A DNA stretch of 64,000 nt from a virus (taxonomy: Duplodnaviria; Heunggongvirae; Uroviricota; Caudoviricetes): the IMG/VR virus record IMGVR_UViG_2778261638_000005, positions 6,684 through 70,683 of that record; one strand, given 5' to 3'. Made by a program: the position numbers and the translations under genes. This document shows, piece by piece, positions 3,007 to 55,829 of the stretch (its first letter is position 1; each line of letters begins with the position of its first letter). The notes beneath the pieces are model-generated. The model saw only the letters and a program-made list of their open reading frames with translations. It did not search any database and was not told where the DNA came from.

Positions 3007-3018
3007 CTTATTATCCCC

Positions 3019-7098: not shown

Positions 7099-7427
7099 TA
7101 CTCACCCCCATTGCCGTACAGGGTTTCAGCCGCTGATTTTTCTACATCCCCGGAAACAGGAGCGATCGCCATATCAGTGATCTGCAGATCGGCGCTGCGA
7201 TTAACACCATCGTCAGTTTCTCTGGCAGACAGGCCTCGAATAACAGCCTTTGCAGTTATCATCACTTCTGTTCCGACGCCCTGAGGTTGCGCCTTCAGCT
7301 TATTCAATGTGTCGTTATTAAGAGTGATGCACAGCCCCCACGGGTATTCATCGCGAGTTCTGGTTTCTCCGCTCTCATCCTGGTAGCTGTCAGTGCCGGT
7401 TTTGAGGTTTACGAGTTCCATATACAC
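7098..7427 (-). CDS. hypothetical protein
   Basis: 109 aa ORF in structural module. Confidence 0.35.
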   Translation of the reverse strand: MYMELVNLKTGTDSYQDESGETRTRDEYPWGLCITLNNDTLNKLKAQPQGVGTEVMITAKAVIRGLSARETDDGVNRSADLQITDMAIAPVSGDVEKSAAETLYGNGGE

Positions 7428-10009: not shown

Positions 10010-10302
10010 TCCTGTTCACTGGCCTCTTTGGCCATCTTCAAATACTGTTCAGGGCAATGCGCCATAACGCGCTGAAACAGTTCCAGCGCCAGATTGCGTT
10101 GCCCCTCATTAAATGCCATTGCCATAGCGTCCATCGGTGAGATAGCGGAAAACACACGGCCTTTCTCCAGCACCGACCAGACAACGCGACGCCCCTGTTC
10201 ACTGCTCATGACAAAGCGAATGTCATCAATTTCACGCTGCGCCATGTCACGTTGCTTACGGGCGTTTTCTTCTTTCAGTTGATCGTCTTCGTAATCTGTC
10301 AT
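10006..10302 (-). CDS. hypothetical head-module protein
   Basis: 98 aa ORF overlapping portal stop and scaffold start. Confidence 0.4.
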   Translation of the reverse strand: MTDYEDDQLKEENARKQRDMAQREIDDIRFVMSSEQGRRVVWSVLEKGRVFSAISPMDAMAMAFNEGQRNLALELFQRVMAHCPEQYLKMAKEASEQE

Positions 10303-11978
10303 TGTGATTGCCCACCCTGACCACTAACTGCATTCGCCATAGCTGACAAAACACTCGGATCCGAAGTTTTAGCTTCGCTTAGCGTCTTGGCACCCTGTGC
10401 CGCCGCCATCCCCATCGCCATCATTTGTTGCTGCTGTTGTTGCTGTGCCCGTTGCTGGCGAGTCTGCTCAACCTGTTCCTGCGGAACAATGACGGTTGGA
10501 GACACTCCGGACATATCAGCGAATGCATCGATCGCCTGATCAACGTTGAGTTTGTCGAGAGCTTCTGGTTTCGCTTGCGCAAGTTGACCAATGAAGTTGA
10601 CCGTAGACGCCAGACTGGACAGGCCGATAGACTTCTGCGCCTGAGCCATGACGGAAATGTATTCGACCTTCAGGGGCATACCTTCCATCGCGTCAGGCGG
10701 TGGCGGCAGCATTTTTTTACGCACCATCATCGAGAAAGCGCGGTCAATGAGAGGATTAAGACATTCGTCGTTCAGACGCTCCAGAACCGGCCCCAACATC
10801 AGAAGTTTTTCTTCTTTCATTTCGATCACCGCTTCAACAGGCATCGAGCGGGTATTGATGTTCTGCAACATCATGAACAGATCGACAAAGTAGGCGCTGT
10901 TAATGATTTGGCGAGTGTCCTGAATGTCTGCTACCAGATCTGCTGTACTGGGGTTAACCAGATAAGCAGGCCTGAAACCATCCTGACCAGTAATCTGATC
11001 GATATACGTGATGTCGCCAGGAAGAAGGGAGGCGCGCTGATTCTTGAGGGAAGTCGGAGCAACCATCGGCGGATTGGTGGCTTTATCAATCAACTGCGAC
11101 TTGCGCTTCTGGAGAAGCTGCAATGCCTTAACAGGTCCAAGCGCCAGCATACCCGGGCATGATGATCCATAAACATCTTCGCCGTTAACTTCCCAGCGCG
11201 GAGCCATAATTGGAAACTCATCGAATCCGGACTCACGCAACAACTTGTCGTTATCGCCACCAACCTCGTAATAAACCGATTTGAATGGCTTGTTCTTGCT
11301 ATCCAGCTTCGATGTATCGCGGTCAATGTTCGGGTAAACCGAATGCATCACTTCAATCCACTTCTCGTAGGTGCCGCTTTCCCACATGCTTTTTACGGAT
11401 TCGCTGACGTTATTTAGCCCGAACTCCTGAACAAGCTGACGAACAGTCATAGAGAACTTGCGAAAACAGGTGTCCACACTGCCACGAGGTGAGTTAGCCA
11501 GGTAGTAACTGCCTATCGGGAATGGCATTGTGCGAATGATGTCCTCGTCATCCTCCAGCACTGCCATTGCACCAGTGCTGTATGTGCCGAGGCTTCCGTA
11601 TAACTGCGGCAGAGACTGATAGAGATTCGACTTATTGAACATATCGTTCATGCGGTTCTGCACCGCCTCAAGCCACAACTTAACAGGGCCATAATCCATC
11701 ATTTCAGGATCTGGCGTAGCCAGGCGAAACCACGGACGCGCGGGGCTTGTGATGCCTGACATCATGCCGCTGGCGAGAGTGCGCGCCGCCATAGTCCCGG
11801 TCGAATCAATAATGCGTGTATTGCGTCGATCGTTACGGTTGACCTCAGAAGTCAGAAAGCGGGAACCACGCGGGTTGATGTAATCACTCAACTCGCGCCA
11901 GTGCGGCTCGAACGACTGACGCTCGCTTTCAAGTTGTGCGAACTGTTTGTTCAATCGCTCTTTAGTTGTTTCCGCCAT
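10299..11978 (-). CDS. portal (head-to-tail connector) protein, podovirus/T7-like
   Basis: 559 aa; Gln/Ala/Met-rich C-terminal tail (QQRAQQQQQQQMMAMGMAAAQG...) like the T7 gp8 C-terminus as recalled; sits between terminase and scaffold. Confidence 0.8.
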   Translation of the reverse strand: MAETTKERLNKQFAQLESERQSFEPHWRELSDYINPRGSRFLTSEVNRNDRRNTRIIDSTGTMAARTLASGMMSGITSPARPWFRLATPDPEMMDYGPVKLWLEAVQNRMNDMFNKSNLYQSLPQLYGSLGTYSTGAMAVLEDDEDIIRTMPFPIGSYYLANSPRGSVDTCFRKFSMTVRQLVQEFGLNNVSESVKSMWESGTYEKWIEVMHSVYPNIDRDTSKLDSKNKPFKSVYYEVGGDNDKLLRESGFDEFPIMAPRWEVNGEDVYGSSCPGMLALGPVKALQLLQKRKSQLIDKATNPPMVAPTSLKNQRASLLPGDITYIDQITGQDGFRPAYLVNPSTADLVADIQDTRQIINSAYFVDLFMMLQNINTRSMPVEAVIEMKEEKLLMLGPVLERLNDECLNPLIDRAFSMMVRKKMLPPPPDAMEGMPLKVEYISVMAQAQKSIGLSSLASTVNFIGQLAQAKPEALDKLNVDQAIDAFADMSGVSPTVIVPQEQVEQTRQQRAQQQQQQQMMAMGMAAAQGAKTLSEAKTSDPSVLSAMANAVSGQGGQSQ

Positions 11979-11992
11979 TTCAATGACTCCGG

Positions 11993-12199
11993 TTACTGAC
12001 CAAGTAGCGTTTTACCGCTGGTATTAGCGGTTGATGTGTCGCCCTGAGAACCGGTAAGCAGCGTAGAACTACGACCAGCAGCAGCGCGACGGCGACGAGT
12101 TTCTTCGTCGCGGGCATCAACAACGGCGGCATCCTGCTCCTGTGGTGCTGCCTGAACTTCTGGTGTTGCAGGCACTGATGGTGAGCTACCCATGCACAT
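11993..12199 (-). CDS. small Ser/Thr/Ala-rich protein (putative)
   Basis: 68 aa ORF with GGAG RBS 8 nt upstream, just upstream of portal. Confidence 0.25.
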   Translation of the reverse strand: MCMGSSPSVPATPEVQAAPQEQDAAVVDARDEETRRRRAAAGRSSTLLTGSQGDTSTANTSGKTLLGQ

Positions 12200-12626
12200 A
12201 TCAATGACTCCGTACGCAATTAAATTATTACCAATTTAACCACATATGATTTATTTATCGTAGTCGGTTGACATTTAACGCACGAATTATTACCTTTCAG
12301 GTAACCAAAAAGTTCATTCCGGTTACTAACCTGACTGGCTTGTCGTTAAATTGAACAGGTGGAGTGAGCTTTTATTTTGAGCAGTACGGCGTATGGCACA
12401 TGCGCCGATAGCGGCCTGGATACGTTTAAGGGGCACCCTCCCTTGCTCGGGCAAACGAACCAGGTAGCCGGAATGTGCAAGTCGAGCGGTTTTATTCCGC
12501 GCACGGGGATTCACCATCCCGGCGATTCGGTGTGACGCCTCGGAAGAGACGAGGGTACAACGATGAGAGCATTTATGGAGCCGCGACAAAGTGTGGTGCC
12601 TTAACAGGCTAAGTGCTCTCAGCGTT

Positions 12627-12703
12627 GTGGCATTAGCTCAGTCGGACAGAGCAACCGCCTTCTAAGCGGTTGGTCGCAGGTTCGAATCCTGCATGCCACG
12701 CCA
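12627..12703 (+). tRNA. tRNA-Arg (anticodon TCT)
   Basis: Cloverleaf read from sequence: acceptor GTGGCAT/ATGCCAC, D-arm GCTC-AGTCGGACA-GAGC, anticodon stem ACCGC/GCGGT with loop CTTCTAA, T-arm GCAGG-TTCGAAT-CCTGC, discriminator G, CCA. Confidence 0.85.
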
Positions 12704-12864
12704 GAATCACGCCTAAGGACCGTGATGCCAGAAGTTCCAGTGCTTGGCGGTGATGGTTTCCCTTGAAGGACTATCACCGCACTTTTTACAGCAGGACGCC
12801 ATTGCGATGACTTCATGCTGTAAACCCGTACAGCCACGGAAGGAAGAACTCATTGCTTCCAGTT

Positions 12865-12889
12865 CGCCCGGTTCGCCGGGCATTTTTTT
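12865..12889 (+). terminator. rho-independent terminator-like hairpin
   Basis: GCCCGG-ttcg-CCGGGC stem followed by ATTTTTTT, downstream of the tRNA. Confidence 0.5.
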
Positions 12890-12900
12890 AAGGTGAGATT

Positions 12901-13257
12901 ATGAACGACCAGCAAATCGAAAAAGAAATCGTTGAGAAAGGCAAAACGGCACCGCGAGTTACGCCTCAATATATCGAAAGCATCATTCTTGAAGAGCATT
13001 TCTTTACTGCTTATGACGGCATTCGTGCCGCCAATATGGGCGTTGGCGATTCATGGACAGCGCATAACTCTACAGACCTCCTGACTTTCTGCGTACTGGT
13101 GCTGAAGAATGGCTTCACCGTCACCGGAGAGAGTGCCTGTGCAAGCCAGGAAAACTTTGATGCAGAAATTGGTCGGAAGATTGCCCGGCAGAATGCTGTA
13201 AACAAAATCTGGATGCTCGAAGGTTACTTGCTGAAGCAGAAGCTAAGCGAGCAATAA
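12901..13257 (+). CDS. hypothetical protein (opposite-strand moron-like gene)
   Basis: 118 aa ORF with AAGGTGAG RBS; only plus-strand gene in an otherwise minus-strand morphogenesis block. Confidence 0.5.
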   Translation: MNDQQIEKEIVEKGKTAPRVTPQYIESIILEEHFFTAYDGIRAANMGVGDSWTAHNSTDLLTFCVLVLKNGFTVTGESACASQENFDAEIGRKIARQNAVNKIWMLEGYLLKQKLSEQ

Positions 13258-13347
13258 CACCGTGACATGTCACAAACAGCCAGCCGATGAGCTGGCTTTG
13301 TTTTATCCTCACCAGAGGATATCAGCAGCATTATCCCCTCCAACGGA

Positions 13348-14823
13348 TTAAGCATAGGGATCGTAATCTGTGATGGCCTTGCCTTGCTGGTTCTGCTGCC
13401 CGGGAATTCGCAGACGCTTCGACACAGGGAACGCAAACGTCAGCAGTAGCGCATCGCCTTTACCCGGCGAACGCCCAAGCCGCTCCTTGATATCTTCCTT
13501 CGGTTCGATAACGATTTTACCGTCCACTCGAACTTTGTACTCAGCCGCCGACAGGTCGTCCGCTGTTTCCTGGTCATCAAGCATGCCACCCAGCCTCAGC
13601 CATGTCTTGCATGAGTTGAACATCTCCCCACGCTTGTTGAGCATCTGCGGGTCAGTAGACGCGCCACCGAACGGAACAAGTTGCCATGTACGACCCCAGC
13701 CGTCACCGATTGACTTCAGACCAGTTCCGTAACCGAAGTCGATGAACACTGCGTCAGCCTGGTACTGGTCTTCAAAGTCAGCGATACGCTTCGCCATAAT
13801 CAGATCGTCAGTGGTCTTGTTGCCAGTCCACAGCACCTTACTGTGCAGCCCCTGCCGCAGGTATATCACAGCGTCATCAACGCCGGAGTATGCCGGGTCA
13901 ACGCCGATTATCACCGGAGCATGTGCAACCTGCGCAGCGGTTACCACCCGTTTCATTGCCTCGTCAGTAAGGCCAGTAGGGATAAACTGCAATTCAGATG
14001 CATCCGGGAATATGCCGCGCACACGGATTTTAACGAAGTCGCTGTCTTCCCCGTAGTCATCAACCCATTTCTGCAACTGCTGTTTGTTAGTGCCTTCCAC
14101 CGTCCGGCTGTCAATCTGCGCACACTTCCAGCGGTGTTTGTACTTGCGGAAACATTCACGGAAACGCCCGGTGTTACGCGTCGGGTTTCCGAACGCCACC
14201 CAGATAATCTCAGTGTCTTCGTCCGTTAGCGCACCCTCGGCAACTTCCCACACCAGATCCGCAATGTTCGACGCTTCATCGAATACCACGATGATGCGTT
14301 TGCGCTCGTTGTGTAGTCCGGCGAATGCCTCAGTGTTGTGCTCAGACCAGGGGATTGCGTCAGCTCGCCACCGCTTGTCGTGCCCAGGGTCATTGCTGTA
14401 CATCGCGGTAGCGGTACAGGTAAACCAGTCTTTCGTGATAGCAAGGTTCGACCACTTGATAATTTCCGGCCAAGTCTTCGTTCGTAGCTGGTTGTCGGTG
14501 TTGGCGGTCACCACGACCTTACAATCCTCGCAAGTGGACATGCCCCAGTTGATCAGCATTGAGATGAATGCGGATTTACCAATACCGTGACCCGAAGCAC
14601 GTGCCAGCATAAGCGGCTGATAGCGCGTCTCTGGATTCTGCAGGTGATCACGTATCTCTCGGAACGCATCAGCCTGCCACTGACGTGGACCGGTGGCATG
14701 TGCTAATTCAGTCCCCTCTTCCCCCCACGGGAACGCATAGAGGGCATAGCCAAGCGGATCGTGAGTGAACCCTGCAATATCCTCGATCAACTGCTCTTCA
14801 GGAGATAACGCTGTATCTGTCAC
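13348..14823 (-). CDS. terminase large subunit
   Basis: 491 aa; Walker A-like SGHGIGKS and Walker B-like IIVVFDEAS; nuclease-type C-terminal half. Confidence 0.85.
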   Translation of the reverse strand: MTDTALSPEEQLIEDIAGFTHDPLGYALYAFPWGEEGTELAHATGPRQWQADAFREIRDHLQNPETRYQPLMLARASGHGIGKSAFISMLINWGMSTCEDCKVVVTANTDNQLRTKTWPEIIKWSNLAITKDWFTCTATAMYSNDPGHDKRWRADAIPWSEHNTEAFAGLHNERKRIIVVFDEASNIADLVWEVAEGALTDEDTEIIWVAFGNPTRNTGRFRECFRKYKHRWKCAQIDSRTVEGTNKQQLQKWVDDYGEDSDFVKIRVRGIFPDASELQFIPTGLTDEAMKRVVTAAQVAHAPVIIGVDPAYSGVDDAVIYLRQGLHSKVLWTGNKTTDDLIMAKRIADFEDQYQADAVFIDFGYGTGLKSIGDGWGRTWQLVPFGGASTDPQMLNKRGEMFNSCKTWLRLGGMLDDQETADDLSAAEYKVRVDGKIVIEPKEDIKERLGRSPGKGDALLLTFAFPVSKRLRIPGQQNQQGKAITDYDPYA

Positions 14824-15494
14824 TGATTACCATCCTGACGTTCTTTGAGTCGCTTCCTGGCTGCTGCTATGCGATCAGCAATTGTCACATTCACATTAAC
14901 ATCCAGACGTTCTTTGAACGCGTTGACATCAACATGCTTACCAATCAGCTCAAGGTTCTTCACCTTGTCAGGCCATTTAATTTTTTTGAGGATTGTCTCT
15001 ATCGAATCCTCGTTCATGTTCATGATGGTCGATGACAGATCAAAGCCACTAAGCGTAGTGCGCCAAATTTTCGGCCACTCACGGATTGGTTTAAGGCTCC
15101 CATCGTCGTTGAGGATGTCGATCACGTCCATCTGGTCGATCTCCACCAGGCGCATGAGAACGTAATCAGCACTGACGCGCATTCGTTTGTTGCGCTCCTC
15201 CATCAACTCGGCAATCCGTTTTTGAATGCGTTCATCGCGCATCATGACACTGGCTTTAACTGCCGCTGTATTTGGGGAGAATCCTGCGTTAATCGCTGCC
15301 TGAGTCTGGTTTTCAGGCGTTTTGATGTATGACTGGCAATAAGCCTCCTGCATTGCTGTTAGTGGCTTAAATTGCGTTGATTTGCGTTTATAGGTTTTAG
15401 GTTCAGCAGGCATCATAACCACCGTGGTAATAGTTACCGTTGTGGTAATAGTATCATGCAAAATAAAGCCGCCATAGTTGGCGGCAGTATTCAA
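14820..15494 (-). CDS. terminase small subunit
   Basis: TPENQTQAAINAGFS HTH motif typical of terminase small subunits; probable true start at MMPAEP (15416); coupled to large subunit. Confidence 0.7.
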   Translation of the reverse strand: MNTAANYGGFILHDTITTTVTITTVVMMPAEPKTYKRKSTQFKPLTAMQEAYCQSYIKTPENQTQAAINAGFSPNTAAVKASVMMRDERIQKRIAELMEERNKRMRVSADYVLMRLVEIDQMDVIDILNDDGSLKPIREWPKIWRTTLSGFDLSSTIMNMNEDSIETILKKIKWPDKVKNLELIGKHVDVNAFKERLDVNVNVTIADRIAAARKRLKERQDGNQ

Positions 15495-15534
15495 AACCCA
15501 TCAAATTCATCATGCATAATCTACTCGTGACATG

Positions 15535-15873
15535 TCACACTATTAATTTCGTTTCATGCCAGCCTTTAGTCACCCAGCATTGCGAGTCACCATTACACGG
15601 GCATGAATTAACTGGAACTCTCTCGCCGCACTTACCGCAACGTTTTCTGCTGATCGATTTTATACGCCCGCGCACGCGTGCATCATCCTGGCGGATCAGT
15701 AACGCTATATACTCACCAAATTCGTAAGGCGCACGCCCGGGGCGACGCGTGGCACAGTTACGCTCCAGCATTTCAATTTCCTGAGCATCAAGCACAATTT
15801 CCAGCTTACGCACACCAGATGCAGCTTGTCTGGCTCTCTGAGCGGCTTTGCGCTCTGCTGATGATTTAGCCAT
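15535..15873 (-). CDS. hypothetical protein, Cys-rich C-terminus
   Basis: 112 aa, CGKCG...CPC motif. Confidence 0.4.
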   Translation of the reverse strand: MAKSSAERKAAQRARQAASGVRKLEIVLDAQEIEMLERNCATRRPGRAPYEFGEYIALLIRQDDARVRGRIKSISRKRCGKCGERVPVNSCPCNGDSQCWVTKGWHETKLIV

Positions 15874-16288
15874 TCTGATTTTCCTGCATCATGAGAAATA
15901 CAATCATGGCGGCGCGGAGTGGGTTGTTGTCTATGGTAATAAATTCACAAAATCTATCCGCCTCCCACCAATATTCATTCTTCATTCCAGGATTATTTCT
16001 TTCGTATGCACATATGCTGATCTGATGTTTTGCGATTACAGGCCATGAGGCGCTCGGATCATTGCAGTAGTCAGGTAAAGGGTTTAATGGCTCAAAAGTT
16101 GTATCAGCATTTCCGTAATACCATTTGTTGGTGTTATTCCCTGATGTTTCCGGTTTACATGCCCAAAGGCCTTTAAAAATTATGTCTCCTACCATTCTGT
16201 TAATTTCAAAATCACTTAACTGTGAATAGTCCATTACTTCACCTCCTGCGGCGGTTCTGGTAGCGGCATCCAATTGATTACATCGCAT
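15866..16288 (-). CDS. hypothetical prophage protein
   Basis: 140 aa ORF, probable start at internal MDYSQL. Confidence 0.4.
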   Translation of the reverse strand: MRCNQLDAATRTAAGGEVMDYSQLSDFEINRMVGDIIFKGLWACKPETSGNNTNKWYYGNADTTFEPLNPLPDYCNDPSASWPVIAKHQISICAYERNNPGMKNEYWWEADRFCEFITIDNNPLRAAMIVFLMMQENQNG

Positions 16289-16617
16289 TCAGGGATGCTG
16301 ATATCATCACCAAGCCACCCTTGACCTTCAGACCAGCATTGCACGTAATACCCGTATTCTGTGTTCACTACGCACCACTGCGCGTCGTCCGGCATTTGCT
16401 CACTACAGCTTATCCAATCATCCGGAGTTACCGGAGAGTTGCCCGATAGCTGGTTCAACTTGTAAGTTTGGCTTACAGGTTCTGCTTCCAGCGATGCCAG
16501 TGCAATTCGTGCCAGCTCTTCCGCTTCTTCTGCTGGCAGTACAACGTTGCTACCAGGTCCGTATGTTTCGCGCCACTGCTTGATTGTCAGCAGTCGCTCT
16601 TTGGTTATAGTGGTCAT
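16234..16617 (-). CDS. DUF551-like prophage protein
   Basis: 127 aa, acidic Trp/Cys-containing C-terminal half typical of DUF551 proteins in enterobacterial prophages. Confidence 0.45.
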   Translation of the reverse strand: MTTITKERLLTIKQWRETYGPGSNVVLPAEEAEELARIALASLEAEPVSQTYKLNQLSGNSPVTPDDWISCSEQMPDDAQWCVVNTEYGYYVQCWSEGQGWLGDDISIPECDVINWMPLPEPPQEVK

Positions 16618-16874
16618 TTGTTAATCCTCAAAACTTTATGCCCGGGCGCAAAAGCACGCGTTTTGTCTTTGCTTATTCGCCAGCCATCCTTGCGCGCCTC
16701 TTTTGCACAGCCAGCCCATGACGTACCTATATACTCACCGAAGTCTGGCGACTTATATTTGCCATCTGTACATTGGAGGCAATCACAATAGAGATGCATG
16801 GTGTAACTTGCAGCGATAGCCATATCACTCTCCTTTAGTGCGCAAGTGGTTTTTCCAGCGGTTTTGCGCCGCAC
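16614..16874 (-). CDS. hypothetical protein
   Basis: 86 aa ORF, Cys-rich. Confidence 0.3.
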   Translation of the reverse strand: MRRKTAGKTTCALKESDMAIAASYTMHLYCDCLQCTDGKYKSPDFGEYIGTSWAGCAKEARKDGWRISKDKTRAFAPGHKVLRINK

Positions 16875-17182
16875 TGGGCTTTTTGCAACAGCTGTGACCC
16901 ATCACCCCGCAACACCCCGTCAACCTCACTCGTCTGTTACTAATCCTCAACCATCGCCAGACCCCAACACCGTTTCTGCTAGCTAACAGAATTTTTGCCT
17001 TACGGTTTTTCATCGTTTTGTTCTCCTGCGTTTCCTTGCTGCTCGTTTCGCCGCTGCAACGCCTGTACGGCGTTTCGGTGCCGGAATGATGCTGTCAGCC
17101 ATCAGGACATACGGCTTTGCAATTAGCGCAGAAGCCCAAAAACGAGTCGGGTACGGTAACAAGCCGATACATGCCACACGCA

Positions 17183-17854
17183 TTACTCACCTCCTTTGAT
17201 GCGAATGCCTGCGGCGCGTGGCACATTAACTTCCACGATGCGCACTGTTGGTTTGTACATCTCAATCGCTGTCAGCCAGTCAGCTCCTGTCATGCGCTTT
17301 TCCGCATCGCCATTAGTCCACTGAACCGGTACACCAATAGCCTTCATCGCAATTTCTATTTCCCCGGCAATGGCGCTTTTCCCGCAACCAGTAAAACCAG
17401 ATACAACGACAAGAACTTCGCCTTTGGCTGGTTTTATTTCCCGAGCTTCCAGTTCTGCTATGCGCTTACTTCCATCCGCGATTACTCCCTCGTAATACTC
17501 ACGCTGCTCGTTGAGTTTTGATTTTGCTTCCTCAAGCTCAACACGCAGTTCCCTTACCGTTAGCGCAATTTCCTCGTTCTCCTGGTCACGGCTTTTGATG
17601 TATTGCTGGTTTCTTTCCCGTTCATCCAGCAGCGCCTGCACTACTTCAGGGTTGAAATCTGCGATATAACGAGCGTTGTTCTCTGCGTTTTTCTGCCCAT
17701 CAAAGCCGGGCCATTTGATAACGTCTTCACATCGTTTATCACCAGGTGTATGCACCGCATATGTACCAGTACCAGACGAAATAAATGCGACCCATTCACC
17801 CTGTGTTGCCAGTTGCGCCGCTTCACGCAGTGCCTGATAGTCAATCTTGCTCAC
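17183..17854 (-). CDS. Ead/Ea22-like protein
   Basis: 223 aa; N-terminal MSKIDYQALREAAQLATQGEW and central coiled coil typical of the Ea22-like family. Confidence 0.5.
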   Translation of the reverse strand: MSKIDYQALREAAQLATQGEWVAFISSGTGTYAVHTPGDKRCEDVIKWPGFDGQKNAENNARYIADFNPEVVQALLDERERNQQYIKSRDQENEEIALTVRELRVELEEAKSKLNEQREYYEGVIADGSKRIAELEAREIKPAKGEVLVVVSGFTGCGKSAIAGEIEIAMKAIGVPVQWTNGDAEKRMTGADWLTAIEMYKPTVRIVEVNVPRAAGIRIKGGE

Positions 17855-18471
17855 TGGTTGCCTCCTTTGCGAAGCTGGGCGGCGATATCTTCGAGAACGC
17901 CATCAGAGAATGAACGGTCAAAATCGCCTTCCGGCGCATTAGCCATAAACTCAGTAGAGGTAAGAATCATCCGGGCAATATCAGCGGCGTTCTTCGCAGT
18001 ATCATCAATAAAACCAGCTTCCCAGGCAGCCAGCATTCTGTTCGCCACAAAGTAAGCGCCCTCCTTGCGTGCTTCAGTCTTCACTTCAGCCAAGAAAGCG
18101 TCGGTGGCTGGGGTTTTTATTTCGTTAAGTGCATCACTGAATCCACCTCTCTCCATACCTAGCTCTGCTTCGTAATCGGCATCGAATGCAGCGTCTTTGC
18201 AGAACTTCTTCAGCTTTGCATTCTCCGCTGCCAGCGCCGAAAACTTCTCGTGTGCCAACTTAACAGCTGCATCAGCCTGCTTAATTGACTCAATCGCTCT
18301 CTGGTGGTCTTCGGCCAGCGCATTAGCACGCACCAGTTGCACTTCCAATTGCGTTGCCAAATTGCTGATCAGCTTTGCCACACTACGCATATCAACGGCC
18401 CCACATTCTGCTTTCAGTTCCGAAGCCATCTCATGCCCGGCGGAAACTAACCCTTTGATATTACTTTCCAT
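17851..18471 (-). CDS. hypothetical protein
   Basis: 206 aa helical protein, overlaps neighbour by 4 nt. Confidence 0.4.
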   Translation of the reverse strand: MESNIKGLVSAGHEMASELKAECGAVDMRSVAKLISNLATQLEVQLVRANALAEDHQRAIESIKQADAAVKLAHEKFSALAAENAKLKKFCKDAAFDADYEAELGMERGGFSDALNEIKTPATDAFLAEVKTEARKEGAYFVANRMLAAWEAGFIDDTAKNAADIARMILTSTEFMANAPEGDFDRSFSDGVLEDIAAQLRKGGNQ

Positions 18472-18532
18472 CTTTACCCTCGCTTATCCACATAACTTAT
18501 TGATTACATTGATAACTAAAAAGATCGTCGAT

Positions 18533-18877
18533 TCAGAACTCTTCGATATTCCAGCCGCCACCTGCTTTCTTTGGCTTAACCGTTACCCCGATGATTCGGA
18601 ACGGATACTGATCTGCGGCGACTTTGGTTTTCACCCTGGCGTCGTCGGTCCAGAAACCTTTCACTTCATGCAGTTCCATCTCACCAGTGGCGAGCATCAC
18701 AGCGAAATCTGGCGTATAGAACGTGTTGTCAGCCAGCCGCAGCTTGATACCCTCGAACCGATACCAGGCGATTTCCCCTGCACGTTTACGCTGCTCAAGG
18801 TGCTGGCAATACGCAGATTCTGTTTTGTTCATCTGGCCTGTTTTGAGTCGACCAAGAGCCTGTATCTGCTTTCTCAT
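18533..18877 (-). CDS. putative PD-(D/E)XK-type nuclease family protein
   Basis: 114 aa; TPDF...GEMELHEVKG resembles a PD..ExK motif; first gene downstream of P in the resident phage. Confidence 0.4.
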   Translation of the reverse strand: MRKQIQALGRLKTGQMNKTESAYCQHLEQRKRAGEIAWYRFEGIKLRLADNTFYTPDFAVMLATGEMELHEVKGFWTDDARVKTKVAADQYPFRIIGVTVKPKKAGGGWNIEEF

Positions 18878-18880
18878 GAT

Positions 18881-18957
18881 TTACCCCTGAGGTAATTAAA
18901 AACCACATAAGACACGAAATCAATAGATTTTAGAATATTTCATTACCCAGAAGGTAA
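18881..18957. promoter_or_regulatory. two TTACC-N5-GGTAA palindromic operator-like sites
   Basis: Perfect copies at 18881-18895 and 18943-18957, same motif as at 58187-58201 and 58899-58913 in the immunity region. Confidence 0.45.
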
Positions 18958-18994
18958 TTATTGAGGCGTAAAAAAATGCGCTATCGCGCTGGTA

Positions 18995-19091
18995 TTACTT
19001 GATAAATCCTGCCGCCTTTCCCCGCCTGTATTCCTCCATCAGCCACTGCGCCGGTGTTATTCCCCCCAGGGTGGCGGCGTTAGGCATGCAC
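18995..19091 (-). pseudogene. displaced 3' end of replication gene P (separated from its 5' part by the Mu-like insertion)
   Basis: Joining host sequence at 56001-56004 to 19091 downwards with one GCAC copy gives an in-frame continuation of P for about 30 codons ending at TAA 18995-18997. Confidence 0.35.
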
Positions 19092-19100
19092 TAAAGCGCG

Positions 19101-19175
19101 CAAAATCATTTGATACCGTTTTGAATTTTTTTTGATACCACCCAAAACGGCACAACGAAAAATTATTTGATACTA
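19101..19175. repeat. right-end transposase-binding repeats (three TTTGATAC cores, attR-like)
   Basis: Cores at 19109-19116, 19131-19138, 19166-19173; 22-bp spacing of the first two as for Mu R1-R2. Confidence 0.6.
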
Positions 19176-19910
19176 ATCGGGAGTGCTTTTAGGGTATGGC
19201 TGAACCCTGAATAGCTTAGTATTTAGCCGCTTCCTTGCTCGCTTGTTCAGGAACCTGATGTAGCGATACTGATTAAATTTGTGCACCACGGCACGCTCTT
19301 TATTAGCCCGTAAATACACGCCTCGTTGTCCACCGCGCTTAATTGCGTTCATCGTTATCTCGTGATACCACTCACCATCCAGCTCGTAGAACGTGCTTTC
19401 ATGGCTGCCAATAAAATCAAAATTCGACGCCTGATACACAACGCCTGCGCGTCCGCAGCGTTCGTCAGCAAAGGACTGAACCCACTCCACTGACGGATAC
19501 AGTAATCTGATAACTTTCAGCGCGTAGCTGATGGCCCGTGATTCAGAGTTGCGGGGCATGTCGTCGTGTAGCCACATGCGATTCAACTCCATATAGCCCC
19601 GGTTATCCGTTTCAAGCACGACACGACGACCTGAGTTGGGGTTAAGGGCATATCCCCACTGGAGAACGCCAACCAGATCGCGTCCGCTGAATACTCCCAG
19701 GTGGAGGTAAGAGTTATTCACAAAACGGCGGGAATAGTGCTTTGTCTGAATAATTGTGCGGGCCAGCCAGCAGGATATGGTTTCAACGCGCAGCTCCTTT
19801 GAACCATAGCCAACAATCTGGCCTTCATACTCAATAACGCACGGTTTCGTCAGAATGCGTGATTTTTTCTCTTTTCCCACAATGTTTCTCCGTGGGATGC
19901 TCGCAGGCAT
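19173..19910 (-). CDS. mom: Mom DNA-modification protein
   Basis: Last gene before the right end, overlapping com as in Mu; start codon uncertain (ATG at 19910 or GTG near 19880). Confidence 0.7.
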
Positions 19911-20019
19911 TCAGCATTATGATGTGACGTTTGCAACGCGGACACCTGATTTCAATGTGATCAAAGGAATCCGCCTTAAATAACAGTTTGTTGCAGTTTT
20001 TACAGCGAATTGATTTCAT
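19831..20019 (-). CDS. com: Com zinc-finger translational activator of mom
   Basis: 62 aa with Cys at 6, 9, 26 and 29; directly upstream of and overlapping mom. Confidence 0.8.
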
Positions 20020-20130
20020 CTCACCTCCTTTGCATCAATTCGCCACTATCTTAAAAAACATCATGGGTTGAGTGTGGTTATTGGGGCATAATCGATCTGT
20101 ATTACCGATCGATTTAATTGATTCGATCGT
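20020..20130 (-). promoter_or_regulatory. mom operon regulatory region with three clustered GATC sites
   Basis: GATC at 20094-20097, 20107-20110, 20125-20128 within about 35 bp between gin and com, as in the Dam/OxyR-controlled Mu Pmom region. Confidence 0.55.
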
Positions 20131-20695
20131 CGTTTTCTATATGCGCTCGTTTCGCGGGGTGTTTTTTATACAGAGTTGACAGGGCCACATCGTAGATCAA
20201 TGCAACCTGCTTGCGGGGGATTCCTTGTGCTAATAAACGCCCGGCCTGCTCCCATTCCGCTTTGGTTAGTTTAGGTGGTCGCCCACCAATACGGCCTTTA
20301 TTTCTGGCGGCAGCAAGTCCAGCCATCGTTCGCTCGATGATTAGTTCTCGTTCCATTTCAGCCAGGGCACCCATAACGTGGAAGAAAAAACGCCCCATTG
20401 GAGAAGATGTGTCTATGCTGTCGGTCAGACTGCGAAAATTAATCCCTCGCTCCCGTAGTTCCCCGACGAGAGAAATCAGATGTTTCATGCTTCGCCCGAG
20501 GCGATCCAGTTTCCAGACAACCAGCGTGTCACCTTTTTGAAGGCGCTTTAAAGCGCGTTTTAATCCCGGTCGGTCTGTCTTTGTCCCGCTTAATTTATCT
20601 TCAAATATTTGTTCACATCCTGCACAAACAAGAGCGTTTCGTTGCAGGTCTGTATTCTGGTCATTTGTTGATACCCTTACATAGCCAATCAGCAC
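20114..20695 (-). CDS. gin: Gin-type serine DNA invertase
   Basis: 193 aa; N-terminal YVRVSTNDQ catalytic serine motif of resolvase/invertase family; C-terminal HTH; adjacent to invertible segment. Confidence 0.9.
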   Translation of the reverse strand: MLIGYVRVSTNDQNTDLQRNALVCAGCEQIFEDKLSGTKTDRPGLKRALKRLQKGDTLVVWKLDRLGRSMKHLISLVGELRERGINFRSLTDSIDTSSPMGRFFFHVMGALAEMERELIIERTMAGLAAARNKGRIGGRPPKLTKAEWEQAGRLLAQGIPRKQVALIYDVALSTLYKKHPAKRAHIENDDRIN

Positions 20696-20749
20696 TCTGG
20701 ATCTCCCGTTTAAAAGCGCAAATCATGCCATGCAGGCCGGAAACAACCA

Positions 20750-20777
20750 TTATCTAAAACCTCGGTTTACAGGAAAC
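20750..20777. repeat. gix recombination site (gin-proximal copy)
   Basis: TTATCTAAAACCTCGGTTTACAGGAAAC; inverted copy at 23813-23840 with 2 mismatches; matches the Mu gix sequence as recalled. Confidence 0.8.
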
Positions 20778-20931
20778 GGTAAACAGGGCTGGTAACGCCG
20801 TTCAAAAGACAGGCGATACCTTATCCGGTGGGCTTACTTTTGAAAACGACTCAATCCTTGCCTGGATTCGAAATACTGACTGGGCAAAGATTGGATTTAA
20901 AAATGATGCCGACAGCGACACAGATTCATAC

Positions 20932-21780
20932 ATGTGGTTTGAAACAGGCGACAACGGCAATGAATATTTCAAATGGAGAAGCAAACAAAGCACCACAACA
21001 AAAGACCTGATGAATCTTAAATGGGATGCTTTGTCTGTTCTTGTTAAAGCCCTTTTCAGCAGTGAAGTAAAAATATCGACAGTCAATGCACTGAGGATAT
21101 TTAATTCATCTTTTGGTGCCATTTTTCGCCGTTCTGAAGAATGCCTGCATATCATCCCTACACGAGAGAATGAGGGGGAAAATGGTGATATAGGGCCACT
21201 ACGTCCCTTTACGCTTAATCTCAGAACTGGCCGCATAACTATGGGGCATGGTCTGGATGTTACAGGAGATATAACAACTAACGCCTGGGTGTATGCAAAC
21301 AGGTTTGCTATTAATAGTGGCTCAACCTCATGGATTGATATGCGAAACCAGAATGTCATTTTTGGTAGAAACGCAGTATCAACAAGTTCTGCGCAGGCTT
21401 TGTTAAGACAAGACCATGCAGAACGCAAATTTTTTGTCGGTGGACTTGGTAACTACCAGTTTGGTTTTTACATGATTAATAACTCAAGGACAGCCAATGG
21501 CACCGATGGTCAGGCGTACATGGATAATAACGGTAACTGGCTTTGTGGCTCGCAAGTTATTCCTGGCAACTATGGCAATTTTGATTCCAGATATGTGAGA
21601 GATGTTCGCCTGGGTACGCGAGTTGTTCAATTGATGGCGCGTGGTGGTCGTTATGAAAAAGCCGGACACGCAATTACCGGATTAAGAATCATTGGTGAAG
21701 TAGATGGCGATGATGAAGCCATCTTCAGGCCAATACAAAAATACATCAATGGCACATGGTATAACGTCGCACAGGTGTAA
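20932..21780 (+). CDS. alternative tail-fibre variable domain Sv' (silent orientation)
   Basis: Open frame continues upstream to the gix site at about 20779; C-terminus INGTWYNVAQV parallels the S C-terminus INGTWYNAGSI; would fuse to the constant S part after inversion. Confidence 0.7.
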   Translation: MWFETGDNGNEYFKWRSKQSTTTKDLMNLKWDALSVLVKALFSSEVKISTVNALRIFNSSFGAIFRRSEECLHIIPTRENEGENGDIGPLRPFTLNLRTGRITMGHGLDVTGDITTNAWVYANRFAINSGSTSWIDMRNQNVIFGRNAVSTSSAQALLRQDHAERKFFVGGLGNYQFGFYMINNSRTANGTDGQAYMDNNGNWLCGSQVIPGNYGNFDSRYVRDVRLGTRVVQLMARGGRYEKAGHAITGLRIIGEVDGDDEAIFRPIQKYINGTWYNVAQV

Positions 21781-22311
21781 ATGATGCAGCATTTAAAAAA
21801 TATTAAGTCTGGAAATCCTAAAACGAAAGAACAATATCAGCTAACAAAGAATTTTGATGTTATCTGGTTATGGTCCGAAGACGATAAAAACTGGTATGAG
21901 GAAGTGAAAAACTTTCAGCCAGACACAATAAAGATTGTTTACGATGCAAATAATATTATTGTCGCCATCACTAAAGATGCCTCCACGCTTAACCCTGAAG
22001 GTTTTAGCGTCGTTGAGGTTCCTGATATTACAGCCAACCGCCGCGCTGATGATTCAGGAAAGTGGATGTTTAAGGATGGAGCTGTAGTTAAACGGATTTA
22101 TACGGCAGACGAACAGCAACAACAGGCCGAATCACAAAAGGCCGCATTGCTTTCCGAAGCTGAATCAGTCATCCAGCCGCTGGAACGCGCTGTCAGGCTG
22201 AATATGGCAACAGACGAGGAACGCACACGACTGGAAGCATGGGAACGCTACAGTGTTCTGGTCAGCCGTGTGGATACGGCAAATCCTGAATGGCCACAAA
22301 AGCCTGAATAA
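21781..22311 (+). CDS. alternative tail-fibre assembly protein U'
   Basis: 176 aa; N-terminus near-identical in pattern to U ([18 protein letters not shown]); convergent with U. Confidence 0.75.
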
Positions 22312-22316
22312 AAATT

Positions 22317-22338
22317 AAGGCCCGCTATCGGGCCTTGT
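22317..22338. terminator. bidirectional stem-loop between convergent U and U'
   Basis: GGCCCG-ctat-CGGGCC hairpin between the two stop codons at 22309-22311 and 22340-22342. Confidence 0.5.
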
Positions 22339-22339
22339 C

Positions 22340-22873
22340 TCATTCAGGTTGTTCGGGAAATGTTACTGGCAGGCTGGAGGTGTCTGTAGATTCGACTTTC
22401 TGCGCATAGAGCATCCACTCAGTTAATTTTTGTTTATTCTCGTCGGAAATGATGCCCAGCCGTAGCTGTGAGTCCCATAGCTGGGTTTTATCCCTGACAA
22501 GTTGCAACAGGCTTTGTTTTTCATTCTCTGCCTGCTGCCTTTGTTCCTCCTCGGTATAAGTTCGCTTTATCACTACGCCATCTTTGAACATCCATTTACC
22601 CGAAATATCAGCCCGGCGATTTGCTGTAATATCAGGAACCTCAACGACGCTTGCGCCTTCTGGATTAATTGCTGAAACATCCTTTTCAATACAAATAATA
22701 ACGTCGTTGTGGTCATAGACCATTTTCAACGTATCAGGCTGAAAGTTCTTTTGTTCCTCATACCAGTTTTTCCCATCCTCTGTATAAAGCCATTTGATGT
22801 TAAATTGTTTCGTTAGCTGGTATTGCTCTTTTGTTTTAGGGTTGCCAGCAGTAATGTTTTTTAAGTGCATCAT
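22340..22873 (-). CDS. tail-fibre assembly protein U
   Basis: 177 aa, paralogue of U', immediately after S. Confidence 0.8.
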   Translation of the reverse strand: MMHLKNITAGNPKTKEQYQLTKQFNIKWLYTEDGKNWYEEQKNFQPDTLKMVYDHNDVIICIEKDVSAINPEGASVVEVPDITANRRADISGKWMFKDGVVIKRTYTEEEQRQQAENEKQSLLQLVRDKTQLWDSQLRLGIISDENKQKLTEWMLYAQKVESTDTSSLPVTFPEQPE

Positions 22874-22875
22874 CG

Positions 22876-24336
22876 TTAAATACTCCCCGCGTTATACCAC
22901 GTCCCATTAATGCAATACTGAATTGGCCTTGCCTGAGTTGTATCAATTAATTCATCACGGTTTCCGTTAACTGAACCTGTAACGACATAACCTGACCTGT
23001 CAGACCAGCCGGGACCATTCCATGTCTGAACAGATGACAGACCGCCCAGGCGAATACCTGTAATAAACCTTGAGTTACATTCTGCCTGCGTATATGCACC
23101 AACATCCCCCGCAGAGGGTTTGCGGGTTGTGGTGTAAAACTCTGACCAGTTAGCTTCAAAGCCATAACCATCACGCGCTGAACGATAAAAGATACCGCCG
23201 TTCTTATAATTCACGCGGAACTGTACAGCAGGGCAACTCCCCGCATTCATATTGAAGTGGAGGATTAATGTCGATGCGCCACTGATATCTGCATCATAAA
23301 CGCCGCTATTCCAGTTCCAGCCAACAGCTTTATCATTTGCAACCCTGCTTCCTGTTTGCCCTAAAGCAAATGCAGGCTGCTGGTTTTTCGTGTTGTAGTC
23401 TCTTCGCCAGCCAGGAGCATAAGCATCACCATGATTAATATAAGTGAATTGAGCGTTAGTAATTCCGCCACCGCTGGACGTGCTCGGGGTGGTTACACGG
23501 ATGGTCATGGCTCCTTTATTACCCATAACCTCAATAACGCAACCTGCAAGATGAATAGTTCCACAGCCAGTATCGGTAATAATTTTATTATTGCCGTATG
23601 ACCATGAACATTTGCACATCCAGTATGGGTGATTGAATGCCCCTTGAGAATCCAGCCATTCAATCAATTGTGCCGTCGTCCAGTTTCCTGCACCTGTGCT
23701 AATAGCACTGTGAAAAGCGCGACATGCACCAATATTTTTTGTGAAAGTATCTTTTCCTGGAATATCTGCGCCGTTCTGGTTTTTCTGTAATGCGCCAGAA
23801 GCCTGATTTACCGTTTCCTGTAAACCGACGTTTTGGATAAACAGCGGCTTATTGGGAATATCTGCTCCGTTCCGGTCTTTTGCCAGACGGGCATTGGCAT
23901 TATCCATCGCAATTTTCACCGCTTTTGCGGTGGCTGCCAGCGTTTCACTGGGGCTGTCAGTGGCACTGGTTAGCTGAACGAGTCCTTTTTTGTTCAGGCT
24001 GGCATCATAGATATCCAGATTTTCACGTGCTGTACGCTGTGCTGATGCCCCGGCAGTTTTAATTTCACTGAGGTTATTTTTTATCAGCAGCGCGTTATTG
24101 CTCATAATGGCTTTAATGGACAGTGCAAGCTGGTTTAATTTTGTTTTATCCGGTTGAATACCGGCTTCTTCCAGCGTGTTTAATAACTCCGCCTGCACAA
24201 TATTAAACCAGTCCATGCCGGGCCATGTGATAACATTATTCCCGTCACCTTCTGAAAACCAGCGAACGATAGCACTACGCTGGGCGGATACGGGCGGCAT
24301 GACGGTTACGCCGCTGTCGTTATCAATATAAAACAT
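22876..24336 (-). CDS. tail-fibre protein S (constant N-terminal part plus variable Sv part inside the invertible segment)
   Basis: 486 aa; gix site lies inside the gene at 23813-23840; internal NGADIP repeat. Confidence 0.8.
   Translation of the reverse strand: MFYIDNDSGVTVMPPVSAQRSAIVRWFSEGDGNNVITWPGMDWFNIVQAELLNTLEEAGIQPDKTKLNQLALSIKAIMSNNALLIKNNLSEIKTAGASAQRTARENLDIYDASLNKKGLVQLTSATDSPSETLAATAKAVKIAMDNANARLAKDRNGADIPNKPLFIQNVGLQETVNQASGALQKNQNGADIPGKDTFTKNIGACRAFHSAISTGAGNWTTAQLIEWLDSQGAFNHPYWMCKCSWSYGNNKIITDTGCGTIHLAGCVIEVMGNKGAMTIRVTTPSTSSGGGITNAQFTYINHGDAYAPGWRRDYNTKNQQPAFALGQTGSRVANDKAVGWNWNSGVYDADISGASTLILHFNMNAGSCPAVQFRVNYKNGGIFYRSARDGYGFEANWSEFYTTTRKPSAGDVGAYTQAECNSRFITGIRLGGLSSVQTWNGPGWSDRSGYVVTGSVNGNRDELIDTTQARPIQYCINGTWYNAGSI
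23813..23840. repeat. gix recombination site (copy inside S gene)
   Basis: GTTTCCTGTAAACCGACGTTTTGGATAA, reverse complement of the 20750-20777 site with 2 mismatches. Confidence 0.8.
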
Positions 24337-24878
24337 TAGTTATCTCCGTCATGGTAAACAAATTTATAAATCTGATGTGCGGGTTTATATTTCTCCAGTA
24401 AACATTCCAGCGCACCCGATTCATAAACACGTAACGGCGTCAGAACATTATCCAGCACCGTTGCGTTGCGATAATTTTTAATACCGTAAATATTGACCTG
24501 CGTAACCCACTGGCCTTCTGTGGAATCCGTCAGCCTGACGGTAAAACCGTACTGTGCAGCCAGCCATTCATAAAAGCGCCGACTCAGATTGCCGGTCATA
24601 CGCATTTTATTCGCGGCAGCCCGCTGGCGTTCGGACAAGGTGCCGTTTTCGCTGGTACAGTCCGGCAACCCCAGAAATGATTCCCACTCCCCCAGATACC
24701 AGCGGGATGTGGACGGGAAACGCTCCCGCAGCATTTGCCGCGCATCATCCGCCGCAGTGGCAATCACGTCGCTGATGGCCTGCGCCAGCGCAGATAATTT
24801 GCTGTCGGGGCTTTTATTCCAGGCAAGCCCTGACGGCAGTAATTGCAGAAAGGCCGTCTGATAGGGTGTTACAGCCAT
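24336..24878 (-). CDS. baseplate/tail protein (Mu gp48 position)
   Basis: 180 aa; position and size in conserved Mu tail order. Confidence 0.6.
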   Translation of the reverse strand: MAVTPYQTAFLQLLPSGLAWNKSPDSKLSALAQAISDVIATAADDARQMLRERFPSTSRWYLGEWESFLGLPDCTSENGTLSERQRAAANKMRMTGNLSRRFYEWLAAQYGFTVRLTDSTEGQWVTQVNIYGIKNYRNATVLDNVLTPLRVYESGALECLLEKYKPAHQIYKFVYHDGDN

Positions 24879-25951
24879 TCAATTGTCCCCGGTGTTAACA
24901 GTTCCGTATTCTCCGAACGCTGGATCTCTGTCGGGAAACGCACTTCAAAATCATCCAGACCGGTAACACCTGCCACCGCACGGATAATACGGGAGGGGGC
25001 AAGTGCGCCGCCCGGCGTCACCTCATTAAAAAACATGGTATTAATGGCGTGGGTAATAGCCTGTTTCAGTTCGGCTGTCTTCGGTGATATATAAATCCGT
25101 GGATTTACCGGCTTTGCCTTTGGCGCAAATACAGTGACATTTACACCGTCAGGCTGTCCGACAATCAGACCGGTGATCGGGTCAGTATGACCGGCGATAT
25201 AATCTGCCACGCGTTCCACGTCTGCCGGTTGTGGAAAAATATTGCTCCGGTTATCCATAACAAACGTCACCCCGACTGTGCCACCGCCTTTCCATGTCGG
25301 AAAACACCAGGCACGGGTAACGCCGCTGACTTCACGTGCCCAGCGGACGTAATCAAACTGATTACCGCCGAACGGAGGATACTGGACACGATATTCCAGC
25401 CGTGACAGCAGCTCCGCTGCACTCTCAATATCAGCCCCACCGGAAAACCCTTTTACAGTGATGGCATCGGAAACAACACAGGCAACCGGGGTGATCAACG
25501 TTAAAAGGGTATTCTCACCGGTATTTCCTGCTTCACCGGCAGCCAGTGCGGTAACGGTAATTTCCGTCGTTCCTGCACGGTCAATCACAATGGCATCAGC
25601 CAGGCTGTAAACCACACCATCAGCACGCTGCCAGCGTGTACCGGCAGGAATGGTGGTCGCTGCCGATGTGGTGACAGTCAGCGGGCCGCTGGCGGCTGTC
25701 GCCTGTTTGCGGCGCACGCCCCAGAACCGGCAGTGCTCCAGCAACTCATCTTCATCTGCTGTCGACGGGATAATCTGCCGTCCAACCCATGAAATATGCT
25801 CGTGACAACCGGCAGCAAGGCCCGCCTGAGCATAAGCAATGGCACTCAGCGTTTTTTCACGGGCCTGAGGCCAGCTACCCGGCAGGCGCTGTTCAATATT
25901 CTGTTCTGTACGGGCAATCAGCGATGATAATGTCGGTGGTGAATAAGCCAT
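24869..25951 (-). CDS. baseplate J-like protein (Mu gp47 position)
   Basis: 360 aa; baseplate wedge position. Confidence 0.65.
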   Translation of the reverse strand: MAYSPPTLSSLIARTEQNIEQRLPGSWPQAREKTLSAIAYAQAGLAAGCHEHISWVGRQIIPSTADEDELLEHCRFWGVRRKQATAASGPLTVTTSAATTIPAGTRWQRADGVVYSLADAIVIDRAGTTEITVTALAAGEAGNTGENTLLTLITPVACVVSDAITVKGFSGGADIESAAELLSRLEYRVQYPPFGGNQFDYVRWAREVSGVTRAWCFPTWKGGGTVGVTFVMDNRSNIFPQPADVERVADYIAGHTDPITGLIVGQPDGVNVTVFAPKAKPVNPRIYISPKTAELKQAITHAINTMFFNEVTPGGALAPSRIIRAVAGVTGLDDFEVRFPTEIQRSENTELLTPGTIEWL

Positions 25952-26389
25952 TTAAACCCCGTTAAATGCTGCTTTAAACTCATAAGGAATAACGGAACCA
26001 TCCGGTAATGTCAGTGCAATGTAGAGGTATAACCAGCCCTGATGTAACTGTTCCGCTCTGATGTTAATCGCACTTACCCGGCCCGCTGTTTTCAGCCATT
26101 CCAGCGCCTCTTCGGCATACCCTCTGGCGCGTTCCAGCGTATCCGGTGTGGCTTTTTCACGTGATAACAGCCATAACCGCGAACCGATGGGGCGGTCGCG
26201 GTAACTGTCACCCCACCATCCACGGCGATCATCTGAACCATCCGGCAGCGTGTCAGAATCCAGCGCGCGCCGGTCTGTAAACAGGGAGATTGTCACATCG
26301 GTTGTCAGGCTGTCGTCGGTCAGCATATCAATGCCATCCTGTGCAATATCGCCGCGTCCGTTCGTCCAGATAATGGCTAAATCGGTCAT
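25952..26389 (-). CDS. baseplate wedge protein, GPW/gp25-like (Mu gp46 position)
   Basis: 145 aa, conserved order. Confidence 0.6.
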   Translation of the reverse strand: MTDLAIIWTNGRGDIAQDGIDMLTDDSLTTDVTISLFTDRRALDSDTLPDGSDDRRGWWGDSYRDRPIGSRLWLLSREKATPDTLERARGYAEEALEWLKTAGRVSAINIRAEQLHQGWLYLYIALTLPDGSVIPYEFKAAFNGV

Positions 26390-51698: not shown

Positions 51699-51709
51699 TA
51701 TTTATCCCC

Positions 51710-52642: not shown

Positions 52643-52715
52643 ATTATTCTCCGTTTATTCAAATCAGCTTTGTTTCCTTCGTTTAACAGTCCGTTCCCGC
52701 GGACTGTTTTTTTAT

Positions 52716-54803: not shown

Positions 54804-54805
54804 TT

Positions 54806-55767: not shown

Positions 55768-55794
55768 TTCCAATAGCCCGCGGCTGGTTTTTTA
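55760..55794 (+). terminator. terminator-like hairpin after repressor gene
   Basis: GCGGGCTA-N7-TAGCCCGC stem followed a few nt later by TTTTTT. Confidence 0.35.
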
Positions 55795-55829
55795 ACCTGT
55801 TTAAAACGTTAAAATCGCAGAAATCAGTA

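Follow-up and report, generated by a model that had tools for sequence, protein, structure and literature searches.

What does it mean that the tail-fibre gene S of a Mu-like prophage carries, on either side of its internal crossover site gix, a short direct repeat encoding the peptide NGADIP(G/N)K? A sequence-only reading of the 64,000-nt stretch of viral DNA analysed here (the window) had noticed this arrangement and offered two explanations, namely slippage or duplication at the recombination hotspot, or a structural repeat of the fibre shaft. We conclude, with a probability of roughly 85 %, that each repeat forms the beginning (9-17 residues) of a conserved tail-fibre junction unit which occurs twice in succession. 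The repeat pair is real but ordinary, being already known and conserved in Mu S' and many other fibres; some novelty attaches only to two natural deletion alleles that used the repeats to remove gix.

The invertible segment and the repeat pair

The repeats are located at the G-segment end of a Mu-like prophage (minus strand, about 19.1 to 56 kb), for which the best DNA match over the whole region is SfMu (91 %). The features of this end are as follows.

23855-23880, minus strand: repeat copy 1, AAAGACCGGAACGGAGCAGATATTCC, encoding K153-P161; closes the constant part Sc and lies outside the invertible segment
23815-23840: gix inside S, TTATCCAAAACGTCGGTTTACAGGAA, 26 bp, encoding (F)IQNVGLQE, with the central TC at 23827-23828
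23759-23784, minus strand: repeat copy 2, AAAAACCAGAACGGCGCAGATATTCC, encoding K185-P193; within the invertible segment, start of the P2-H-type receptor-binding module
23776-23871, minus strand: complete 96-nt (32-residue) unit carrying gix, N156-Q187, NGADIPNKPLFIQNVGLQETVNQASGALQKNQ
23725-23775, minus strand: second unit, short form, N188-A204, NGADIPGKDTFTKNIGA, running directly into the distal domain
23878-24000, minus strand: PF03406 Phage_fiber_2 repeat (Pfam match aa 113-153), directly upstream of copy 1
22876-24336, minus strand: expressed tail-fibre gene of 486 aa, Mu S' type, Sc + Sv'
22340-22873, minus strand: tail-fibre assembly gene, U' type (PF02413)
20763-21780, plus strand: silent alternative variable part, Mu S G(+) type, in frame with Sc after inversion
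21781-22311, plus strand: silent alternative assembly gene, U type (PF02413)
20750-20775: partner gix, TTATCTAAAACCTCGGTTTACAGGAA, in inverted orientation
20114-20695, minus strand: gin-type serine invertase gene (PF00239, 2e-50; PF02796, 2e-17)

This layout is that of a Mu-type Gin/gix segment, with an adjacent invertase gene, inverted 26-bp sites and two in-frame sets of variable part and assembly gene. The two gix sites share a TC centre, with 2 mismatches over their 26 positions. Compared with the Mu reference, the segment is flipped into the G(-) orientation, and because of this the expressed gene is S' in Mu nomenclature. Furthermore, our repeat search returned a 58-nt inverted repeat (78 %) which reaches past gix because a homologous TVNxAxxAxQK follows in both alternative variable parts. 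Beyond this shared stretch the S'-type part starts the second NGADIP, whereas the S-type part goes on with GDTLSGG and has no second NGADIP, and the fibre formed after inversion therefore has one copy only. Accordingly, modelled inversion gave an open fibre of 508 aa with a single motif copy, the current fibre of 486 aa being open as well.

The same search resolved the pair into 26-nt direct repeats at 23759-23784 (GGAATATCTGCGCCGTTCTGGTTTTT) and 23855-23880 (GGAATATCTGCTCCGTTCCGGTCTTT), which are identical at 23 of 26 positions (88 %), lie 96 nt apart from start to start and flank gix. Coding is on the minus strand, where copy 1 reads AAAGACCGGAACGGAGCAGATATTCC and copy 2 AAAAACCAGAACGGCGCAGATATTCC, encoding K153-DRNGADIPNK-163 and K185-NQNGADIPGK-195, respectively; around the repeats and gix the 486-aa ORF reads ...AMDNANARLAKDRNGADIPNKPLFIQNVGLQETVNQASGALQKNQNGADIPGKDTFTKNIGACRAF..., and the peptide common to both copies is K-x-x-N-G-A-D-I-P-x-K-x-x-F-x-x-N-[VI]-G. 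In copy 1, gix itself encodes the second half of the motif, FIQNVGLQE, and the strand-exchange dinucleotide falls within codon V170. A direct repeat of NGADIP(G/N)K on either side of the crossover site is thus real. It had been described as tandem, of which the direct orientation and the two copies are borne out, but not a contiguous array: Tandem Repeats Finder found zero arrays in 22800-24400, and the pair consists of two dispersed direct copies with a period of 96 nt. The similarity spans about 26 nt (11 to 17 residues) and then fades; across the full period, identity between the 96-nt unit and the 96 nt that follow it is 48 %.

When the S protein was plotted against itself, aa 153-163 versus aa 185-195 emerged as the sole significant internal repeat, with a score of 45 where the maxima of shuffled sequences had a mean of 28 and reached 39 at most. 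At the DNA level, the 21-mer consensus of the repeat, allowing up to 3 mismatches, occurred at only two sites in the 64-kb window. An Rfam scan of 19000-26000 identified no family, and the RNA fold of 23740-23900 was not significant (z = -1.37).

Conservation of the pair in Mu-type fibres

The window encodes a normal Mu-type S' fibre, and NCBI already holds a 100 % identical 486-aa protein (P0001). Mu S' (Sc + gp52; PDB 8JU3, "Tail fiber protein S, S'") matches it over the full length with 1030 bits; the Sc parts do not differ, and the two motif copies, gix and the spacing of 32 residues coincide in position. The two proteins differ in length (486 aa in the window vs 488 in Mu), in residue 170, which is V in the window and L in Mu (the gix base beside the central TC being G and C, respectively), and in a variable patch after copy 2, AFHSAISTGAGN in the window vs AYSAWLNIGGDSQV in Mu. 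SfMu, by its ORF49 and G segment, shares with the window the orientation, the G variant of gix and the two copies, but the G-segment interior of the window is nearer to the C segment of P7 (97.2 %) than to SfMu.

Both Mu S' (G(-)) and SfMu carry the two copies at the same residues as the window, whereas Mu S (G(+)) carries one; the pair is hence restricted to the S' isoform. Among the best 120 protein clusters, 85 begin with the Mu N-terminus, and 84 of these 85 carry both units: 83 match the motif twice at 32-residue spacing, and in one a G of copy 1 is replaced by R while both units are kept. The remaining cluster is without a unit. By its own account, the sequence-only reading would be refuted by a conserved structural motif present identically in all Mu-like S proteins, and this is essentially what Mu S', SfMu and 84 of the 85 clusters display.

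The NGADIP unit in other tail fibres

Both copies fit the motif N-G-[AG]-D-I-P-x-K-x-x-F-x-x-N-[IVL]-G. Unit 1 (N156-Q187) has in addition the long form, which continues with L-x-E-T-[VI]-N-x-A-x-x-A-L-Q-K-x-Q and gives the 32-residue period, while unit 2 is a short form. We define this element of enterobacterial phage fibres here as the 32-residue NGADIP junction unit; it has no curated family. The units (aa 156-204) lie outside the only PF03406 match of S (aa 113-153), and a full-text literature search for "NGADIP" yielded unrelated matches only.

The copy number ranges from one to three. A single copy is present in P2 H, 186 K and Mu S, two copies in Mu S', ST64B and 9g, and three in two IMG/VR contigs. 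The motif is a junction element found generally in fibres of enterobacterial phages. For instance, the double motif at exactly 32 residues recurs in unrelated fibres such as those of siphovirus 9g (aa 492/524) and ST64B (aa 87/119), and its degenerate DNA pattern at exactly 96 nt was found in at least 57 IMG/VR contigs. A scan of IMG/VR for the single motif gave, among the matches listed (n = 120), 116 one-copy and 4 two-copy contigs, proportions that are rough as the IMG/VR scans demanded exact degenerate patterns; in these listed matches the single motif precedes many unrelated distal domains. Three NGADIP units, spaced by 32 residues, are present in two IMG/VR fibre genes (L020, 1303-1590, and L064); units 1 and 2 share 97-99 % DNA identity, indicating a recent tandem duplication of the whole unit. 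In two others (L028 and L051), two full units are 70 % identical at the DNA level.

Three groups of relatives are particularly instructive. P2-type H proteins (P2, fiAA91-ss, vB_EcoM-12474III) resemble S in having a PF03406 repeat followed by NGADIPGKDTFTKNIGACRA and a similar distal domain, but their one motif copy comes directly after the PF03406 repeat, with no gix and no 32-residue unit, and aligns to copy 1 of S as well as to copy 2. Second, 186 K and Mu S (G+) share copy 1 with a gix or gix-like coding sequence, followed by TVxKAxNAVxK, but have GDTxxG next instead of a second NGADIP; phage 186 has no invertase, and the site in its K gene is annotated only as "Mu-like inversion crossover site". 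Third, Sb24 of ST64B and the side tail fibre of 9g have two copies 32 residues apart and a gix-like 26-mer (6-8 mismatches) in unit 1, but differ in their N-terminal and distal domains, and no invertase or inverted partner site was seen in their loci. Similarly, among 19 two-copy IMG/VR loci with at least 5 kb downstream, 17 were without an inverted partner site plus invertase, and 2 had both (by invertase signature).

As a separate observation, one 792-aa protein of E. coli (P0087) has two distal-domain-like modules in tandem with an NGxDI before each, and the full two-copy arrangement precedes the second of these modules.

Homology breakpoints at the repeat edges

Module seams were mapped by blastn of the S gene against its relatives. 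The H genes of 12474III and fiAA91 align to S in two pieces, nt 349-482 and nt 550-1293/1220, which overlap on the single motif copy of H; therefore, S' corresponds to a P2-type H junction plus exactly one extra 96-nt unit bounded by the repeats. Other alignments end at nt 482 (PSP3), at nt 578 (ST64B) and inside gix (186 K), and that of P7 starts at nt 541. The breakpoints at nt 482, 550 and 578 coincide with the repeat edges, and in complete E. coli genomes the matches stop at gix or shortly before copy 2. This is reminiscent of the mosaic fibre genes with host-range segments described by Sandmeier (Mol Microbiol 1994, PMID 8065255, as summarised in PMC4134206), whose segments, as PMC8986868 and PMC3945230 relay the 1994 work, are bounded by invertase sites or site-like sequences; in the form given by these citing papers, the general picture of module boundaries fits the fibre gene of the window.

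A conserved junction unit as the best explanation

The conserved motif lies where the constant shaft meets the exchangeable distal module, and its own coding sequence serves as gix. As the peptide is conserved at this module seam, the DNA repeat is best regarded as a by-product of it and not as a scar of recent slippage or Gin activity. The unit follows N-G-A-D-I-P-x-K-x-x-F-x-x-N-[IVL]-G, with a long form running on through L-x-E-T-V-N-x-A-x-x-A-L-Q-K-x-Q. Unit 1 is complete and straddles the Sc/Sv boundary, each alternative variable part supplying the remainder (TVN..A..QK), and the short form of unit 2 constitutes the N-terminal edge of a receptor-binding module common to Mu S', P1/P7 S and P2 H. 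Within the window gene itself, units 1 and 2 are alike over only about 17 residues, and the notion of a unit repeat rests on relatives with full second units. A conserved unit of this kind would likely give fibre genes short patches of shared sequence for module exchange.

This conservation supports the proposal of a structural repeat in the fibre shaft, as does the 32-residue spacing kept in ST64B, 9g and at least 57 IMG/VR contigs, and we infer that the unit may be a structural element of the trimeric shaft. An AlphaFold2 monomer of S, built on a shallow alignment of 15 sequences, had a mean pLDDT of 34.7 and was unusable as a model.

Regarding its consequences, the window itself gains little from the repeat. 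The 32-residue NGADIP unit, which no Pfam model covers, is instead useful as a landmark of module boundaries in the annotation and engineering of tail fibres. In addition, gix appears in a different light, as the coding sequence of a conserved fibre motif and not as foreign DNA inserted in the gene.

Alternative origins of the two copies

The two-copy state may go back to an old duplication or to a module fusion at the shared motif. In a fusion, a constant part with a full unit (as in Mu S and 186 K) would have been joined at gix to a module bringing its own P2-H-type motif, with no duplication in place. We consider such a fusion a serious candidate, at slightly worse than even odds. The same Sv' module (TVNQASGALQKNQNGADIPGK...) is indeed joined at LGLQE to quite different constant parts without copy 1, as in P0088, P0099 and 33 of the best 120 clusters, and P7 S has copy 2 alone, after a divergent LEQTVELAAGALQKNQ; moreover, homology breaks at gix and at the repeat edges. 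However, ST64B and 9g, which have two copies and no inversion system, together with the full tandem units of other fibres, show that duplication in place also occurs. Both routes are compatible with each other, and both fit a conserved junction unit.

A recent slippage or tandem duplication made locally at the gix hotspot of this phage lineage seems, by comparison, highly improbable. The repeats are direct and in frame and bracket gix exactly, and recent duplications of the whole unit do occur in the motif family, as in the two genes with 97-99 % identical units (L020, L064). In the window, though, similarity is confined to the 26 nt, and neither a high identity of the whole unit (48 % with the following 96 nt, and no array by TRF) nor a restriction to a single lineage is found, the pair being kept in Mu, SfMu, 84 of the 85 Mu-type clusters and fibres without inversion systems. 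Furthermore, the copies are no more alike within a locus than between loci (0.73 vs 0.72), and third positions of invariant codons agree at 0.47 within vs 0.41 between loci; the copies are thus not homogenised. As an origin of the pair, slippage or duplication at a hotspot is hence disfavoured, also by the 17 of 19 two-copy loci that do without an inversion system. What survives of the hotspot idea comes from two relatives, in which crossing over between the repeats deleted exactly 96 nt and, with them, gix.

We give just as little credence to copy 2 as a vestigial or alternative crossover site (pseudo-gix) for Gin, in which case the repeat would reflect invertase-mediated module exchange. Such a role would agree with the invertase sites, or sequences resembling them, reported where host-range segments begin and end (Sandmeier 1994, in the account of PMC8986868 and PMC3945230), with the annotated crossover site of 186 K, present without an invertase, and with three relatives (L028, L030, L035) in which the 26-mer of the second unit is as gix-like as that of the first (6-8 mismatches). 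Against this, the equivalent 26-mer in unit 2 of the window, TCACAAAAAATATTGGTGCATGTCGC, departs from Mu gix at 15 of 26 positions and is centred on TT, the sole good inverted partner of gix is the site at 20750-20775, and the junctions of both deletion alleles (L184, L185) lie in the NGADIP codons, away from gix. Finally, chance similarity of two short stretches, suggested by a length of just 26 nt and by the fact that two-copy short families are often chance matches, is practically negligible with 2 sites observed where shuffles expect 0.01, a dot-plot score above every shuffle and a spacing conserved in many relatives.

Natural 96-nt deletion alleles

The deletion alleles are both Mu-type S' genes. 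P0083 (456 aa) reads ...AKDRNGADIP|GKDTF..., the 32-residue unit being deleted exactly. Its contig, GCA_002474875.1 (L184, allele at 6001-7371), holds a Mu-like prophage with full gin, a silent variable part and one gix; with one gix only, this prophage should no longer be able to invert. The second allele is found in the complete genome of APEC E19057 (L185, 4102-5472), at a different insertion site. In both, the deletion between the repeats is exact, in frame and 96 nt long, and removes the gix of S, while the other gix and gin remain. The crossover falls in the shared GCAGATAT(T/A)CC, with copy-1-specific sequence upstream and copy-2-specific sequence downstream. Thus, the stretch 23776-23871, or the equivalent 96 nt between matching repeat positions, is absent from the two alleles as well as from P2-type H genes; six other complete E. 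coli genomes have the normal 262-nt span. Judging from these junctions, the 26-nt repeats can recombine and thereby delete the 96-nt unit and gix in frame.

The two alleles differ from each other at 54 of 1371 nt, 2 of these in Sc and 52 in the variable part. The variable part of L184 is 98.3 % identical to that of Mu, and that of L185 is 96.7 % identical to that of P7, so that each is closest to a different two-copy relative, which suggests independent deletion events. Deletion within Mu-type genes has thus probably occurred twice. An exchange with a P2-type H gene was considered as the source and rejected, as both variable parts are just 66 % identical to that of P2. The junction pattern AAAGACCGGAAYGGNGCNGAYATHCCNGGNAARGA, validated on both alleles, had no match in IMG/VR or in the GTDB representative genomes, and the deletion allele is therefore rare.

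It is tempting to speculate, with the odds clearly against it in our estimate, that the repeats serve as a recurrent in-frame "exit" from phase variation via short-homology recombination, with duplication or acquisition of a unit as the reverse route. The product of such an exit would have a P2-H-type junction, leaving the phage fixed in its G(-) host range despite an intact gin. Conversely, gaining a unit by duplication or acquisition might turn a fixed fibre gene into an invertible one. The repeats offer a simple genetic route from a phase-variable to a fixed fibre, which bears on the prediction of host range for Mu-like prophages.

Genomic context of the prophage

Several minor observations concern the segment and its surroundings. 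The gix in S has a G beside the central TC (AACGTCGG), like SfMu; in the partner gix this base is C, and position 6 is T. The G change in the gix of SfMu has been discussed previously, with the speculation that it may reduce inversion (PMC4406740).

With the C segment of P7 and RCS47, the interior of the invertible segment (20810-23793) shares 97.2 % identity, as compared to about 91 % with Mu, D108 and SfMu, suggesting that the segment may have been exchanged recently with a P1-like plasmid prophage. At the other end of the prophage, the early region (51703-56000, the side of repressor, ner and transposase A/B) had no megablast match to SfMu 1-4245 and is therefore far more divergent than the late region.

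Beside the Mu right end, window positions 10000-19092 are likewise prophage DNA, with genes for a portal protein, a small terminase, NinX, an Ea22-like protein and a DUF551 protein, and match E. coli chromosomes at 97-99.9 % identity. The Mu-like prophage thus appears to sit inside another prophage.

Lastly, of the two E. coli W assemblies NC_017635.1 and NC_017664.1 (hits H143 and H154), one has the contiguous G(-) form. In the other, as well as in the derivatives LY180 and KO11FL, only the variable half matches, at the same chromosomal place. It looks like E. coli W stocks carry opposite G orientations within one strain.
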